A stretch of 28,182 nt of DNA, filler included, from Candidatus Babeliales bacterium (GTDB taxonomy: Bacteria > Babelota > Babeliae > Babelales > JABCYS01), in NCBI GenBank assembly GCA_016929235.1. It is 2 parts of 2 records of this genome, joined end to end, with 100 filler letters (N's around TTAATTAATTAA, not from the genome) between each part and the next. Parts side by side here need not be neighbours in the genome. Positions count along the whole stretch, not along the records: positions 14,087 to 28,182 come from JAFGJD010000003.1; 1 more part is not named here. The stretch is one strand, 5' to 3'. The stretch's first letter is position 1, and every line of letters begins with the position of its first letter. The position numbers were made by a program. Shown here piece after piece: positions 15,001 through 21,000 of this stretch.

Positions 15001-18000
15001 TCAAATCCTTTTTTTGTTACCGGCGCAAGCAATCCAATGACAGTATCAGATGCGCCAACAAGCACCTTATCTTGTTTGAGCAACGACGCAACTGTCTGCC
15101 AATCACGAACATTATTCCAATGCAACATTTTGCTATTCATTTTCTGATCTTTTGTAAATATAAAAATAGGCCCACTACAATATAATTTCTCCTTTGACAT
15201 TTTCAGAATATATCCTATTTTTAGCTCCGTGTCATATTGAACCTTGCATCAGACAAAAATAAATGTTCGTAGGTGGAGAAATACAATGGCCACAATTGTA
15301 AAACAGGCGGCTCAGAGTAAAAATATTGTCCAAGCACATCGTTCCTACGAAGATATTATTCATTTTCTCGATACAAATTGGCACACAAAAACATCTCATT
15401 CACTCGACGCAATCAGACAACTAGACGCTCTTTTGGATTACCCGTCCCGAGCACAACACACTATTCTCATCAGTGGTACAAACGGAAAAAGTTTAACCGC
15501 ACATTTTCTCACATCATTGTTGCATGAAGAAGGCATCACCGCTGGCATATATACGGCACCACATATACACACATATAATGAGCGGCTTTCTTTGCGCAAC
15601 GAACATATCAGTAATGAACTGTTTACACAGTTTGGCAATAGCATTTTGACTATCGCAGAACACGAAAAGATTAATCTTTCATCTTCAGAATTGCTCACGC
15701 TTATGGCCCTCTTATATTGCAAGCATGCTGGCGTCGATGTCGCTGTACTAGAGGTTGCAACATACGATGCCGACCCAACCTTTGTATGTACACCACAAAT
15801 CATGGCAATTACACGCCTCACCGAAACTAGTGAGATCCACCAACAACAAACCGCGCAGATAATGCAGACCCTCACACGCGCGCTTTCAAAAGATAGTTGG
15901 GTTGTCTCTGCCGATCAAAGCAAATTAAATCTGCAAATCATGGCTGACTGTATACAGCAGCATGGCTGCAACTGGGCAATGCCTATCAGAAAACTAACCG
16001 CACTACCATATCCGTTTGAGCAACTTCATGGACGTGCAGCTGCGCTCGCAGAACGCATTGCACATCTATATGTCACCAATTTCGTACTGCCACATGAGAC
16101 AATTGTAAACGAAAGTTTATTGGTAAAGCCTAAGGGGCATCGTGGGCGTCCAACACTAGAAGCAAAAAGGAACTCAGAGTTAAATCCACGTCGCTCACTC
16201 ACCAACTTCTGGCAAGAAACAGCAACACCACCAACAGGTCGATTTCAAATCATCGAACAAGAGCATCCAACCGTTCTTCTTGATAATGCAAGTAATCTTG
16301 ATGCGCTTAAAAATCTTCTTCTTGGCATTCGTTTACTCCACTATCAACGCCCCATCAAAGGTCTAGCATTAATCATGGGATGCCATGCAGACACGCTGGA
16401 ACGCGAAGAATTTCTTAAAGTCATTCGCTACTTCTTTAAAAAAACAAGCGGTCATATCATCTTCTACCCGGTAGCACCAGAAACACGCGATTCACGCGGA
16501 ACAAAAATTTCATGGAACGTTGAACAGATAACAAACTCCGTAAAAAACATGAAAATGAAAGCCCGCGCTTCAAAAAGCTTTGAAGACGCTTTTTCATATG
16601 CAATAAAACATGCGGATGAACGGAATGGATTGATCGTTATTTCTGGCTCTAATATGGCTCTGCGCGAATATTGGAACTATAGAACCGCACGCGACGCGTA
16701 ACTCATGATATACCCTCTCTTCATCTCGAGTGTCAGCGGCATCGTTTATGGTTGGTGGTATACACGTATCTTTATTGCTAGACACAAGAGATTTACTATC
16801 GGAGCATTAATCCCAATCTTATTGCTTGCCGGGATCTTATACCTTTTATTGCTCTCTGGAACGAAGAATCTTATACTCTTTGCTGTAACGTTTTTTATGA
16901 CCTTTTGGGTAATAATCTTAAAGAAGGCATAGGAATGCGATGGAAGGTCTTCAGATCCTAACATATAATCGCTGGTACCCACTTAGATTTCTTGGGTTTA
17001 CCGATCCTTTTTGGAGCGTACACGAAGAGACCATCCTGGCAACATGGATCGTGCTTGGCATCTTACTATTCACAAGTATCCTTATTCATATAGGCGTTAA
17101 AAAGAATCATCCTTATCTACGTTACCTAGCTATGGAGTACGTACGTTTCTTCAAAGGAACCTACACTGAAGCGACCGGGCTATATAACTATAACAATATC
17201 GTTTTTTTGATTGCGTTATTTAGCTTTATCATGCTATGTAACATTGCCGCCGCATTCATTCCGTGGATTGAAGAGCCTACAAGCGATGTCAATACAACGC
17301 TTGCATTTGGCATTACATCATTCTTATATGTGCAAGGCGCAAGTATTACAGCTATCGGCATTCGAGCCTATGTTAAAGAGTACTTCACTCCGGTCTTTCT
17401 TTTTCCGCTACATGTCGTTGGTAAACTGGTTACGATTGTTTCACTATCATTTCGTTTATTCGGTAACATTTTTGGAGGCTCTGTCATTACAAAGATTTAT
17501 AATGCCATGAAGCTTAATTCCTTTATTGGTGAAATGATCGGTATGATGATCGGAACAAACCTTGTAGTAACTTACTTTTTTGGTATCTTCGAGGGGCTCA
17601 TTCAGGCATATGTCTTTTGTACGCTTACATTGACGTATCTTGCTATGGGCGTACAGCACAATGATGAATCCTCCGGAGAGACTGTATGACATATGCCCCC
17701 TACCTGTTAACGGTTCTTGTTATTGTTCTACCTCTTCTTTTTGCAGTCATCGGAACATCGCTTGGTCAGGGATTCAGTGCCTACTGGAGTCTCAGAGCAA
17801 CCAATATTCAGCCGGCATCACAACCAGAGATTGCACGCATTAATCTACTTGGATCAGCGCTCCTGGAAAGCTCTCTTGTTCTTGGTTTACTTCCAAGCAT
17901 CTTTCTTATCTTTGATCAAACTAAGACCACTCCAGAGTTTTATCCAAGTATCGCGCGACTAGGAATTTTATTTAGTTCAGGACTTGTCTGCATGATTGCT

Positions 18001-21000
18001 CCGGCTGTTTCATGGCGCAGCATCAAAAAAGCTTGTCTTGCTGCGTCACGACAACCTTTTTTTGGCACCAAAATTTTTCAGCTTCTTCTGCTTACCATGG
18101 CACTATTACAAACACCGGTCTTTTTGAGTTTTATGATTACGTTCTTCGCTCGCCACCGAGCACTTACAATTACAACATTAGGCGAATGTTTGCAGATACT
18201 AGCTAGTGGAATAGCGGTAGGGCTCGGTAGCATCGGCCCTATGATTGGACTCGCACATGTTATTAGAAGTGCCATTCAAGGAGTTGGAAGAAATCGTTCT
18301 GCACTTGAAGGACTACGTACATTTACCTTTTTGAGTGAGGGTCTTTTGGGCACACCAATCGCATTCTCATTTATTACAGCATTACTTATCCTGCTACGCA
18401 CCACTACAAATCCATCACTACTACAAGGCATATTATTTATGAGTGCAGCGTTAACCATTGGACTTGGAACGATGCTACCTGGCATTGCATCGGGGCGCGT
18501 AGCATCAACTGCATGTAAAGAAATTGCGCATGATCCAGCAAATCTTACACCAATCCGTACCGCTAGCTTCTTAAGCCAAATCTTTCTAGAATCTCTTACG
18601 GTATATGCATTTTTAGTTACACTAATTCTGCTTTTTTTTGCATGAGATACGCACATGTCACTTAATGTTTTATACATCGTCACCAAACTCGAACTCGGCG
18701 GCGCACAAAAAGTATGCCTCTCCTTATTTGATGGCATTCGCACACGTGGCGGAACAAGCTTCTTAATCTCAGGAGCCGAAGGAACGCTTGCGCCTGCAAT
18801 GCAGGGGCAACCGAACGTCATATTATTGGACAGCTTTAAGCGTGAATTTTCACTATCGTGCATTTGGACAGAATTCAAAAATTTCGTCTCACTTATACGC
18901 ACGATTAGGAGTCTAAAAAAGAAAAATCCCAACCTTATTGTGCACACGCATAGTACCAAAGCGGGACTTGTTGGTCGCTGGGCAGCACTATTTGCCGGTG
19001 TTTCACATCGCGTTCATACCGTGCATGGTTACGGATTTCATCCATATCAATCACACTTCTTTTGGTTTGTAACGTTCTTTCTTGAGTGGGTTACCTGTCT
19101 TATCACGACACACTATATCTGTGTTTCATCTGCAGATGCACGCATTGGCATCAAGCGATTCCCTCGATTTTCAAAAAAATACTCAATCATCCGCGCTGCC
19201 ATTGATTGGGAACAATTTTATATTCCTGCACATGCAGCTCCAGTATTTCCAGAACAGCATGAACCATTTATTTTTGGAACGGTATCCTGTTTTAAAGAAC
19301 AAAAAAATCTCTTCGATCTTTTAAAAGCATTTGACTGGGTTCATAGACGTAACGCACAAACTAGACTCGAATTGGTCGGGGATGGCCATCTAAGGCCTGA
19401 TATAGAAGAATGGATTAAAGAACACAATTTGCGCGATGCTATTACACTTCATGGATGGCAAGATCATGTTGCACCCTTTATGATGAATTGGCACGCATTT
19501 ACCCTCAGTTCGCTTTGGGAAGGATTGCCATGTGCATCAGTCGAGGCACGACTGCTTCGTCTTCCTGTTTTAAGCTACAACACAGGTGGCATCAGCGACA
19601 TAATCAAACATGGTAAAAATGGTTTTTTATATCCGCAACAAGACTGGCAAGCTCTCGCACATGGCATGCTTGAACTCACACAAAAAAAAGAGCTTATTCG
19701 AGCGCTTACGATGTATCAAGAAGATCTTTCAGACTTCAATAACGAAGTCATGGTTCAAAAGCATATCTCCTTGTATACAACACTTGCCACTCAAGAGTGA
19801 TTTTATCGTGACATTTGCTAGACGGTCCATTATAGTAATCGAAAATTTATTTTTCTTTACAAAACGGAGTGCATGATGACAAGCCACATCAAAACCCCCC
19901 TTCCATCAAAGCAACCGACAATCTATCGTGAAAAAAAATACGCCAATGTCATAGATGCCATTGGCAACACGCCACTAGTAGAAATTGATCTTGGAACAGA
20001 AGCAACGCTCTTGGCAAAACTCGAGTTCCTTAATCCTGGAGGGAGCATCAAGGATCGCTCAGCTCGATACATGATCGAAGATGCAGAACAAAAAGGGCTC
20101 CTTCAACCGGGAGGAACTCTCATAGACGCATCATCCGGCAACCAAGGGATTGCGACGGCAATGATTGGGGCATACAAGGGATACAAAGTTATCATCACCG
20201 TCTCTGAAAAAATTAGTAAAGAAAAAATGGATACACTCAAGGCCTATGGCGCAGAAGTCGTCGTATGTCCATGTACTGATACCCTTGAAGACCCAAACAG
20301 TTATCACTCTCGTGCACTCGCACTGCAAAAAAAAATCCCCAACTCGTTCATGCCGAATCAGTATTTCAACGTTGCCAATGCATGGGGACATTATCATTCA
20401 CTTGGTCCTGAAATTTGGAGTCAAACCAATGGTACCGTGACACACTATTTTGCAGCTGCCGGAACTGGCGGACATAGTACTGGTGCAGGTCGTTATCTCA
20501 AAGAAAAGAACCCTAACATCAAAGTCATTGCTCTTGATTCAGCAACATCATGGCGCTCCACAAATGGATGTCCACAGCCATATAAGCTTGAAGGAATCGG
20601 CATTGATTTCGAGTCGCCTGTCTTTGACAAAGCCGTCATTGACGAGATTGTTGGTGTTCACGACGACGACGCAATTGCTATGCTCAAGCATATGGCACGC
20701 AAGCACGGCTTACTTCTAGGAACTAGCAGTGGAGCTGTAGTATATGCAGCAAAAGAATATGCTAAAAATTTATCAAGCGATGCTGTTATCGTTATGGCGC
20801 TGGGTGACTCAGGACGCGCTTACTTGACTAAAGGTTTTTACGATTGAAAGATCAATCCATGTTGGCTTAAATGTATATGAAGATCCAAATTTCATCGATA
20901 GCAACTGTTTATCTGCAACGCGATCTTTACTACGCTGCCACCATGCATGAATCCTGCGCAATGGCGTAATGAAGGTATCTTTACCAAAGTAAAACGTTCC

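Follow-up and report, generated by a model that had tools for sequence, protein, structure and literature searches.

A fused four-hairpin c subunit in the F-type ATPase of Babelota, probably part of a hybrid rotor ring

The number of ion sites in the c-ring of a rotary ATPase sets how many ions are moved per ATP. What, then, is the role of a c subunit in which four hairpins are joined in one chain and encoded directly behind subunit a? Among F-type enzymes, our literature search found only two-hairpin fused cases described (Acetobacterium woodii and Clostridium aceticum). We analyzed such a gene, here called c4, in a stretch of 28,182 nucleotides (the window) from a Candidatus Babeliales bacterium, together with its relatives across the Babelota. 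The initial annotation had proposed a fused four-hairpin F-type c subunit that fits an ATP-driven pump in an ATP importer, and had taken fewer ions per turn to be the purpose of the fusion. The former part is supported, with c4 probably in a hybrid ring and the enzyme probably a pump; the supposed purpose is not supported.

The c4 gene, its protein and the monomeric c

The reading frame assigned to c4 was recovered as proposed (Table 1), with its ATG overlapping the atpB stop codon. The residues Q28, E61, S62, R122-Q123-P124, Q142, G222 and E302 all lie where they had been placed. The family model PF00137 matched c4 with 77.2 bits (cut-off 24). Pfam had been said to see the last hairpin only; the model in fact aligned to four stretches (E<=0.1), and each of the last two quarters (3 and 4) exceeded the cut-off alone. 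Homology of the hairpins to each other and to the monomer, claimed before, was recovered by profile-level hhalign in 10 of 10 pairs at 97.9-99.8% probability. An AF2 model from the single sequence was poor (pLDDT 49), and a model based on a 115-sequence alignment was used instead (pLDDT 96.5, pTM 0.93). It contains the eight long helices that had been described and one short linker helix; one helix is broken at a proline. The best Foldseek matches were again 4bem_J (E 1.8e-4) and 2bl2_A (E 2.1e-4). c4 is a fused four-hairpin F-type c subunit.

The F-type partners a, delta, alpha, beta and gamma were detected above Pfam cut-offs, while support is weak for epsilon (E 3e-4) and for b (NCBIfam, E 2e-4), and b' was assigned from position alone. 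This genome encodes one a, one gamma, one alpha and one beta and gave no match to PF01496, the V-type subunit I; the F-type enzyme is its sole rotary ATPase. The wide spread proposed for c4 was borne out, as each of the 201 Babelota genomes searched gave a match (full-length and open in 195), and so was its place next to atpB: both genes are adjacent and co-oriented in all 116 loci that hold both ORFs, out of 120 loci examined. For the AtpI-like ORFs upstream, PF03899 matched 9 of 50 members at E<=0.05 (best 3e-4); the copy of this genome matched neither PF03899 nor, at profile level, the AtpI of Desulfobacterota.

A separate monomeric c had also been claimed, and was found before b'-b-delta-alpha, away from c4. 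A best match at E<=1e-10 was obtained in 198 of 201 Babelota genomes. In the remaining three an alignment search found none; atpA is likewise missing from two of these, and in the third it lies 916 nt from a contig start. In 48 of 50 loci the monomer gene is followed by a b'-like ORF, and it lies 23-145 kb from c4 in the 14 genomes with both on one contig.

Table 1. Features of the c4 locus (window positions) and the monomeric c gene (contig position)
Feature	Position	Strand	Observations
AtpI-like gene (weak assignment)	16705..16932	+	75 aa, short, hydrophobic; similar ORF before atpB in 92/112 loci
atpB, subunit a	16940..17689	+	249 aa; only copy in genome; R172 and Q222 invariant (112/112 sequences)
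c4, fused four-hairpin (8-helix) F-type ATPase c subunit	17686..18645	+	319 aa; ORF, PF00137, AF2, Foldseek, hhalign
Hairpin 1 (approximate limits)	17686..17925	+	Acceptor face intact: Q28, E61 (17866-17868); I-Q-P loop (17806-17814); Tyr at +5 absent
Hairpin 2 (approximate limits)	17926..18165	+	R-Q-P loop (18049-18057); Q142 (18109-18111) within Q-T-P-x-x-F
Hairpin 3 (approximate limits)	18166..18405	+	G222 (GGC, 18349-18351); E218 (18337-18339)
Hairpin 4 (approximate limits)	18406..18645	+	E302 (18589-18591), S303, Y307
Monomeric c	C2:11351-11605	-	84 aa

Ion sites and loops of c4 and the monomer

An ion site combines the acid and inner Gln of one hairpin with Ser/Thr and Tyr of the preceding hairpin, as described in part of PMC2359735. 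We scored these residues in 115 full-length Babelota orthologues of c4. Hairpin 1 keeps its acceptor (inner Gln or Glu plus acid) in 95 of them, and hairpin 4 keeps the acid in 112 and the donor face toward the next ring subunit, with Tyr likewise in 112. At the inner donors the sodium-site Tyr was found at none of 345 junctions, yet the following hairpin is acidic in 266. Judged by these residues, the inner sites look stripped of sodium ligands, not of acid.

Hairpin 2 had been reported to lack its carboxylate across the whole order. This is contradicted by Glu in 45 of the 115 orthologues, essentially one of two main Babelota clades; the other 70 carry no acid at position 142. Of the members sampled, 40 of 44 in one main clade have all four acids, and 65 of 71 in the other have three. 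The position of G222 in hairpin 3 is acidic in 109 of 115, and the Gly, thought to be private to this genome, recurs in two others (G007 and G015; 3/115 in all). Sequencing error is an unlikely explanation, because GGC is two changes away from any Glu codon. E218 sits one helical turn off, and a Glu at this -4 position occurs in 4 of 6 non-acid versus 29 of 109 acid sequences (Fisher p=0.056, with kin that are not independent); Glu218 may act as a stand-in for Gly222 in this genome. One run shows no difference at G222, and this run may itself be the source of the DNA. We rejected a decay specific to c4 in this genome: its hairpins come last or second to last among 71, but the monomer (2/32) and subunit a (3/69) rank similarly low, and the lineage is therefore divergent throughout.

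The RQP loop, too, proved not to be confined to hairpin 2, since hairpin 1 has Q42 in 114 of 115 orthologues and the preceding Arg in 56. Loop Arg and Gln occur in hairpin 2 of 111 and 105 of 115 c4 sequences, versus 4 and 1 of 50 monomers. The sodium motif of the monomer was scored as Q/E..E[STQ][STQ]xxY, a rule taken from bioRxiv 10.64898/2026.10.01.756066. It was full in 31 of 50 monomers, near in 8 and failed in 11, including that of this genome, and appears to be eroding in Babelota. Inner sites that are acidic without the sodium Tyr, a monomer without RQP and an epsilon without inhibitory tail are new here.

Comparison with other multi-hairpin rotor subunits

The closest described parallel is c1 (AtpE1, 4BEM chain J) of the F/V hybrid Na+ rotor of A. 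woodii and C. aceticum, a system that also gave the best sequence match of the Babelota monomer. In both systems the fused gene directly follows atpB, a separate monomeric c exists, and the N-terminal hairpin keeps Q..E without the Tyr while the C-terminal one keeps Thr and Tyr, so that c4 shares with c1 the acceptor face on its first hairpin and the donor on its last. On the contrary, c4 has four hairpins instead of two, and two to four acids where c1 has one, in the first hairpin. The A. woodii monomer gene lies in the same operon, whereas the Babelota monomer is encoded in another, with no second c ORF at any of 118 c4 loci. The RQP distribution is reversed: A. woodii has it on the monomers and not on c1, Babelota on c4 and not on the monomers. 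The hosts differ as well, Babelota being ATP-importing parasites and A. woodii an acetogen.

Tandem hairpins with reshuffled ligands (PMC2359735) are shared with the V/A-type K/c subunits, such as Enterococcus hirae NtpK (2BL2), the triplicated c of Methanocaldococcus and the 13-hairpin c of Methanopyrus kandleri. Unlike these, c4 has the F-type partners a, b', b, delta, alpha, gamma, beta and epsilon without subunit I, and in Babelota it occurs together with a monomer. N-ATPase c models were among the best NCBIfam matches of c4, below cut-off. However, N-ATPases have no delta subunit according to part of PMC4154653, and the Babelota enzyme has one (PF00213, 78 bits).

Multi-hairpin F-type c subunits also occur in Desulfobacterota and others (e.g., the annotated AtpE of Desulfatibacillum aliphaticivorans); our literature search found no paper on them. 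They show the same atpB-c(n) order, align with c4 in register across 312 hhalign columns and share a signature in hairpin 2: Ser at -33, Pro at -30, the RQP loop and Q-T-P-x-x-F. The Babelota group without Glu142 carries this signature in most of its 70 members (S in 55, P-30 in 60, R in 67, Q in 66, P+2 in 64). Pro at -30 is found in 130 of 130 Desulfobacterota-type sequences versus these 60 of 70, and this genome, with W110-R111-S112, is without it. As in Babelota, the Desulfobacterota monomers have K/R-x-P loops (loop Gln in 0/85, Arg in 29/85), and the loop shift is therefore not special to Babelota. Unlike in Babelota, their monomer gene adjoins the fused gene and keeps the full Na+ motif in 85 of 85. 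Hairpins 2 and 3 of the Desulfobacterota four-hairpin c are acidic in 0 of 130, whereas inner acids are the rule in Babelota. Among 205 non-Babelota fused subunits (mostly Desulfobacterota; sequences related, not independent), an acid follows a Tyr donor in 71 of 71 cases and any other donor in 4 of 629, as against the 266 of 345 Tyr-less junctions in Babelota.

Five hairpin trees disagree on the history. Three unite all Babelota hairpins and the Babelota monomer in one group (96/90 in one of these trees); one places Babelota hairpins 2 and 3 with Desulfobacterota hairpin 2 (SH-aLRT 93) and one shows neither grouping. In the AU test, the grouping of Babelota with Desulfobacterota hairpin 2 had p=0.456. 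Positional orthology to the Desulfobacterota hairpins is weak once the diagnostic columns are left out: with the EQQQ type, 339 of 2000 bootstraps favored the order 1-2-3-4 over all others, and with the EQQE type this order was outside the top five. We consider it an even bet that the inner acids were regained from an ion-blind ancestor.

The place of c4 in the rotor

c4 folds as four c hairpins and is co-encoded with subunit a, at either end it retains the surface for contact with a normal c, and a monomeric c is retained beside b'-b-delta-alpha. We read c4 as a special subunit of a hybrid rotor ring in an ATP-driven pump, with proton-type inner acids and perhaps with a role as foot of gamma/epsilon, a reading to which we assign a probability of about 0.6. 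Because the inner units mostly keep their acid but lack sodium-binding residues, this would probably be a mixed ring of an unstudied type. One c4, perhaps two, would close the ring with several monomers, in analogy to c1 of A. woodii, and would form a fixed, asymmetric part, a scaffold that nucleates assembly beside subunit a. Any acid at the three inner sites, which are without sodium ligands, could transport no more than a proton or a bare charge, and the acid count would be tuned per lineage, with four acids for one clade, three for the other and two for this genome. For an assumed ring of 11 hairpins (c4 plus 7 monomers), 11, 10 or 9 ions would be moved per three ATP.

Work on E. coli gives the RQP loop a role in F1 docking. 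Our literature search found no direct source on the RQP loop or on a tail-less epsilon. c4 is a candidate foot for gamma/epsilon because it carries RQP loops that the monomers lost and that would provide the contact, a proposal to which we give slightly less than an even chance. A complex model of c4 with gamma and epsilon lends weak support (0.50 versus 0.18 for the best control; 100% agreement of contacts between runs; pLDDT of the partners at least 81). Of solved pairs 116 of 157 reach this mark, and of mismatched pairs 2 of 215; no more than 18 of the 157 do so with a score <=0.60, as do both mismatched pairs. The score may be memory of solved F1-c-ring complexes and, since the model covered c4 without monomers and gave no contacts, it cannot indicate a preference for c4.

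Could the fusion instead serve to cut the ions per ATP, as with V-type c subunits, for a steeper gradient? The 70 orthologues without acid at 142 and the two blank hairpins of this genome fit such a purpose, and with Na+ alone all three inner sites would be blank whatever their acid, lowering the count by three, since neither Tyr nor the +2 ligand is present on their donors. A precedent is A. woodii, whose ring holds nine one-hairpin c and one V-type c (part of PMC9171764). We nevertheless consider this unlikely. Acids are kept at hairpins 3 and 4 and, in one clade, nearly always at all four, and conserved buried acids without cargo are hard to explain; V-type c subunits are, moreover, no obstacle to ATP synthesis (PMC9171764). 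With four acids in one clade and three in the other, the fusion persists with or without acid loss, and fewer ions per turn, which had been seen as the point of c4, would apply only to the Gln142 clade (one acid less) and to this genome (two less, unless Glu218 stands in). Even more doubtful is a two-ion ring, in which the monomers and the monomer-to-hairpin-1 site carry Na+ and the inner sites, inherited ion-blind and re-armed with Glu/Asp though not with sodium ligands, carry H+. If true, each ATP-driven turn would export Na+ and H+ at a genetically set ratio (8 Na+ plus 2 or 3 H+ for the assumed 11 hairpins), and one pump would feed Na+- and H+-coupled uptake from the host.

A ring built from c4 only, e.g., of three copies with 12 hairpins, would give two rotors for one stator, used according to condition or life stage. 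A complete site would indeed also result from the donor of hairpin 4 and the acceptor of hairpin 1, and the two c genes lie in separate operons. However, no genome with an assembled alpha block is without the monomer, fused and single c genes adjoin in 8 related operons, and a monomer-only ring would dock F1 poorly since the monomers lack RQP; we regard this as very improbable. Equally small is the chance that c4 stands outside the finished rotor, as assembly template or as non-rotary partner of subunit a (e.g., a leak or exchange channel). Its close association with atpB and the AtpI-like gene, not with other rotor genes, and the fact that it diverges faster than the monomer (median identity 35% vs. 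52%) are compatible with this, but subunit a is about as divergent (39%), and the end faces and F1-side loops of c4 are both conserved.

In the hybrid ring that we favor, imported ATP would mainly be hydrolyzed and the membrane thereby charged. Three TLC translocase genes were found as claimed, and the reported absence of a respiratory chain agrees with the lack of matches to COX1, cytochrome bd, Nuo/Mrp-type membrane subunits and Rnf/Nqr in this 99%-complete genome. In all 30 epsilon sequences the inhibitory tail is absent, and the protein, 78-85 aa long, consists of the beta-sandwich alone. Reverse running of the ATPase is proposed in parts of PMC4776705 and PMC6561590, and the enzyme of this ATP-importing parasite probably runs as a pump. 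Our findings on c4 question the published assumption that the Babelota enzyme pumps protons only. A phylum of protist parasites keeps the four-hairpin subunit, in this genome for its sole rotary ATPase, and the natural series of four, three and two acids makes three questions testable in one system: how many consecutive blank hairpins are tolerated in the rotation of an F-type motor, whether protons are carried by a bare acid where the sodium ligands are missing, and whether gamma/epsilon is held at one position on the ring by a fused subunit.

A membrane pyrophosphatase is also present and could drive ATP synthesis instead, which counts against the pump reading. NCBIfam models named for Na+ and for H+ both pass on it and do not tell the ion apart. 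Its GNTT-x-A motif has the Ala form, which we take to mark the K+-dependent type.

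A fused four-hairpin c subunit throughout the Babelota

The genome under study (G000) comprises 809 kb, and the window consists of its contigs C9 and C10 joined by an N spacer. The fused four-hairpin F-type ATPase c subunit (c4) is encoded on C10 and starts inside the stop codon of atpB, the gene for subunit a. The c4 residues named in the initial annotation were found at their positions. That Pfam sees only the last hairpin was not borne out, as the PF00137 profile matches four stretches of the protein. In profile-level hhalign, all 10 pairings among the four hairpins and the separate one-hairpin c (monomer) scored 97.9-99.8% probability. 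An AlphaFold2 model based on the 115-orthologue alignment has eight long helices (pLDDT 96.5), and its closest structural matches are 4bem_J, the two-hairpin c1 of A. woodii, and 2bl2_A, the K subunit of E. hirae. A homologue search using a relative's c4 gave 16 records, 11 of them titled Babeliales, Dependentiae or TM6 and the remainder bearing generic or other labels.

A c4-type match was present in all 201 Babelota genomes searched. It was full-length and open in 195, partial in five (four at contig ends, that of G063 near one) and interrupted in one (L015, G155 C17) by a single in-frame TGA near codon 27, which may be a sequencing error or a recent break. Loci were fetched from 120 genomes, namely the 30 best matches, 40 middle-to-low ones and 50 of the weakest, and divergent lineages are therefore over-represented among the c4 counted; 118 loci yielded a c4 ORF, and the counts use the 115 of at least 300 aa. 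The adjacency and shared orientation of atpB and c4 described initially held in all 116 loci carrying both ORFs (overlap of 4 nt in 44), as did the separate coding of a one-hairpin c, for which 198 of 201 genomes had a best match at E<=1e-10. Two of the three other genomes also lack an atpA match and the third has atpA at a contig start, which fits assembly gaps. In G000 the ATPase genes lie in four places (AtpI-like/a/c4; c/b'/b/delta/alpha; beta/epsilon; gamma). Subunit a is single-copy there, no V-type subunit I was found in this genome, and the subunit a Arg is kept in 112 of 112 sequences.

In passages of PMC9171764, PMC7911925 and bioRxiv 10.64898/2026.10.01.756066, the fused F-type c is the two-hairpin c1 of A. 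woodii and C. aceticum, and the relevant part of PMC2359735 gives more than two hairpins only for archaea. The literature searched, which included passages of PMC4154653, PMC4564677 and PMC6384691, with supplementary alignments, a hybrid-rotor review and the 4BEM paper outside it, describes no four-hairpin F-type c or Babelota rotor. The fusion as such belongs to a wider family; c4 is real and phylum-wide, and would make a new variant of the hybrid rotor. Special to the Babelota are acids at sodium-stripped sites, a natural series of four, three and two acids, and a tail-less epsilon.

Acids and ion-site composition

Across hairpins 1-4, the residues at the acid position are EQED in 46, EEEE in 36, EQEE in 12, EEED in 5 and EQGE in 3 of 115 orthologues (others 13). 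The hairpin 2 carboxylate, thought to be lost in the whole order, is present as Glu142 in 45 of 115, and Gly222, taken as specific to this genome, is also found in G007 and G015. A tree of subunit a from 51 Babelota, with eight Desulfobacterota as root, has two sister clades, one of which is characterized by Glu142 (SH-aLRT 82; other clade 98), with three changes of state in all. Four acids occur in 40 of 44 members of the Glu142 clade and three in 65 of 71 of the other. From these patterns and counts we conclude that the fusion is retained with or without acid loss. The rotor of G110 (family f9; L160 and L168) was the most eroded among those examined: its c4 reads D-E-S-G, hairpins 3 and 4 having no acid, and in its monomer Pro stands at +2, Phe at +5, and the inner Gln is missing.

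According to passages of PMC2359735, a c-ring site combines Glu and inner Gln of one hairpin with Ser/Thr, the +2 residue and Tyr of a neighbour, which in the two-hairpin K subunit is the preceding hairpin. Under this rule the ends of c4 are suited to pairing with a normal c: an acid together with inner Q/E is found on hairpin 1 in 95 of 115 orthologues, and Tyr on hairpin 4 in 112 of 115. The inner donors carry Tyr in 0 of 345 cases, Pro stands at +2 in hairpins 2 (106 of 115) and 3 (107 of 115), and an acid is found on the hairpin after an inner donor in 266 of 345. By the same rule, the three inner sites are not suited to this.

Scanning 87 loci and 119 proteins from profile and homologue searches gave a comparison set of 85 monomers and 205 fused proteins with 2-6 hairpins, those of named source being mostly from Desulfobacterota. 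In fused c from outside the Babelota, the hairpin after a Tyr donor is acidic at all 71 junctions and that after any other donor at 4 of 629, unlike in the Babelota, a contrast between related sequences rather than a test statistic. By the full Na+ motif rule for monomeric c given in part of bioRxiv 10.64898/2026.10.01.756066, 31 of 50 fetched Babelota monomers (30 best, 20 divergent) have the full motif, 8 come near and 11 fail, including that of G000, whereas all 85 comparison monomers have it. Judged by sequence, the c4 acids without sodium ligands would be proton-type sites, and the lineage would either have relaxed towards H+ or move both ions.

Whether the inner acids were regained or retained is about even from the sequences. 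In favour of regain, Ser-33, Pro-30, RQP and Q-T-P-x-x-F are common to hairpin 2 of the non-Glu142 group and to the ion-blind hairpin 2 of Desulfobacterota. All 130 of the latter have Pro-30, as do 60 of 70 non-Glu142 and 2 of 45 Glu142 Babelota, and 2 of 870 remaining hairpins and monomers tallied. One hairpin tree places Babelota hairpins 2 and 3 with Desulfobacterota hairpin 2 (support 93). Against regain, three of five trees, among them the careful one built without site columns (96/90), join all Babelota hairpins to the Babelota monomer, which would mean independent fusion; the fifth shows neither grouping. Joining the Babelota and Desulfobacterota hairpin-2 sets was not rejected (AU test, p 0.456). 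These trees have 62-66 columns, with Gly+Ala of 23% vs 33% between the two groups, and positional hairpin matching is weak once diagnostic columns are dropped.

Loops, epsilon and the rotor as a pump

The RQP loop is present in the solved monomeric c's compared. An RQP-type c loop binds gamma and epsilon, as known from E. coli work; our literature search found no passage on gamma/epsilon-binding loop residues. The Babelota monomer loop begins with K in 44 of 50, usually as K-Y-P or K-K-P, and has Gln in 1 of 50. The c4 loops are RQP in hairpin 2 and xQP in hairpin 1, with Gln42 in 114 of 115, so that confining the loop to hairpin 2 was too narrow. A complex model of c4, gamma and epsilon scored 0.50 vs 0.18 for the best control, with contacts 100% in agreement and partner pLDDT of at least 81. 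Among reference pairs, 116 of 157 solved ones and 2 of 215 mismatched ones attain the mark, but at <=0.60 only 18 solved pairs do so, together with both mismatched ones. The model lends weak support to binding and yields no interface; its score may reflect likeness to solved complexes. In 30 of 30 best matches, epsilon (78-85 aa) stops after the beta-sandwich and has no C-terminal helical domain, aligning to NCBIfam positions 5-81 of 137; passages of PMC5990651 give this domain as the one that regulates ATP hydrolysis.

We consider a hybrid ring, with c4 as a fixed scaffold and run as an ATP-driven pump, the best reading (probability about 0.6). In it, c4 would stay fixed among normal c subunits and the enzyme would work in the hydrolytic direction. 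Ring figures would assume 11 hairpins by analogy with the A. woodii ring in passages of PMC9171764. That the fusion instead serves to reduce the ion-to-ATP ratio of a ring moving Na+ alone seems unlikely. Still less probable are separate homo-rings of c4 and of the monomer and, equally, a role of c4 outside the rotor.

Passages of PMC4776705 and PMC6561590 propose that the ATP synthase runs in reverse, exporting protons, and leave the rotor unmentioned. The three TLC (ATP translocase) genes noted initially are present in G000, and the absence of a respiratory chain agrees with our scan, in which no respiratory subunit appeared among 48 polytopic proteins, a part of the candidates listed, or in four family searches. 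The membrane pyrophosphatase is a possible second primary pump. The genome further encodes an NhaC-like antiporter and alanine and nucleoside transporters of Na+-type families.

Other features and longer fusions

The two proteins of ~470 aa in the window are possibly paralogous outer-membrane proteins.

Coordinates of c4, of other window features and of further G000 genes
Feature	Position	Strand	Remark
c4	window 17686-18645	+	ORF, 319 aa
Spacer joining two contigs	window 13987-14086		88 N
ORF cut by spacer	window 13058-14038		
ORF with pilin-like start	window 14035-14466		cut by spacer
~470-aa proteins	window 1594-2994 and 26233-27678	-	signal-like starts, terminal Phe; none with Pfam match
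963-aa Omp85/POTRA protein	window 6656-9547	+	
His-rich membrane protein	window 9635-10309	+	224 aa; no Pfam match
PotABCD-like ABC transporter	window 10306-14038		after His-rich membrane protein
Metallo-beta-lactamase-fold hydrolase	window 20809-21834	-	Lactamase_B_2
Epsilon (L188)	G000 C2:159507-159745		further epsilons L189-L217
Membrane pyrophosphatase (L218)	G000 C2:247518-249599		Ala in GNTT-x-A motif

Glu is kept in most hairpins of three longer c fusions: P0149 (524 aa, 7 hairpins, Gracilibacteria), P0102 (1139 aa, 15 hairpins, Asgard archaea) and P0050 (968 aa, 13 hairpins), the last being rich in Trp, as though Trp had been assigned to a Gly codon.
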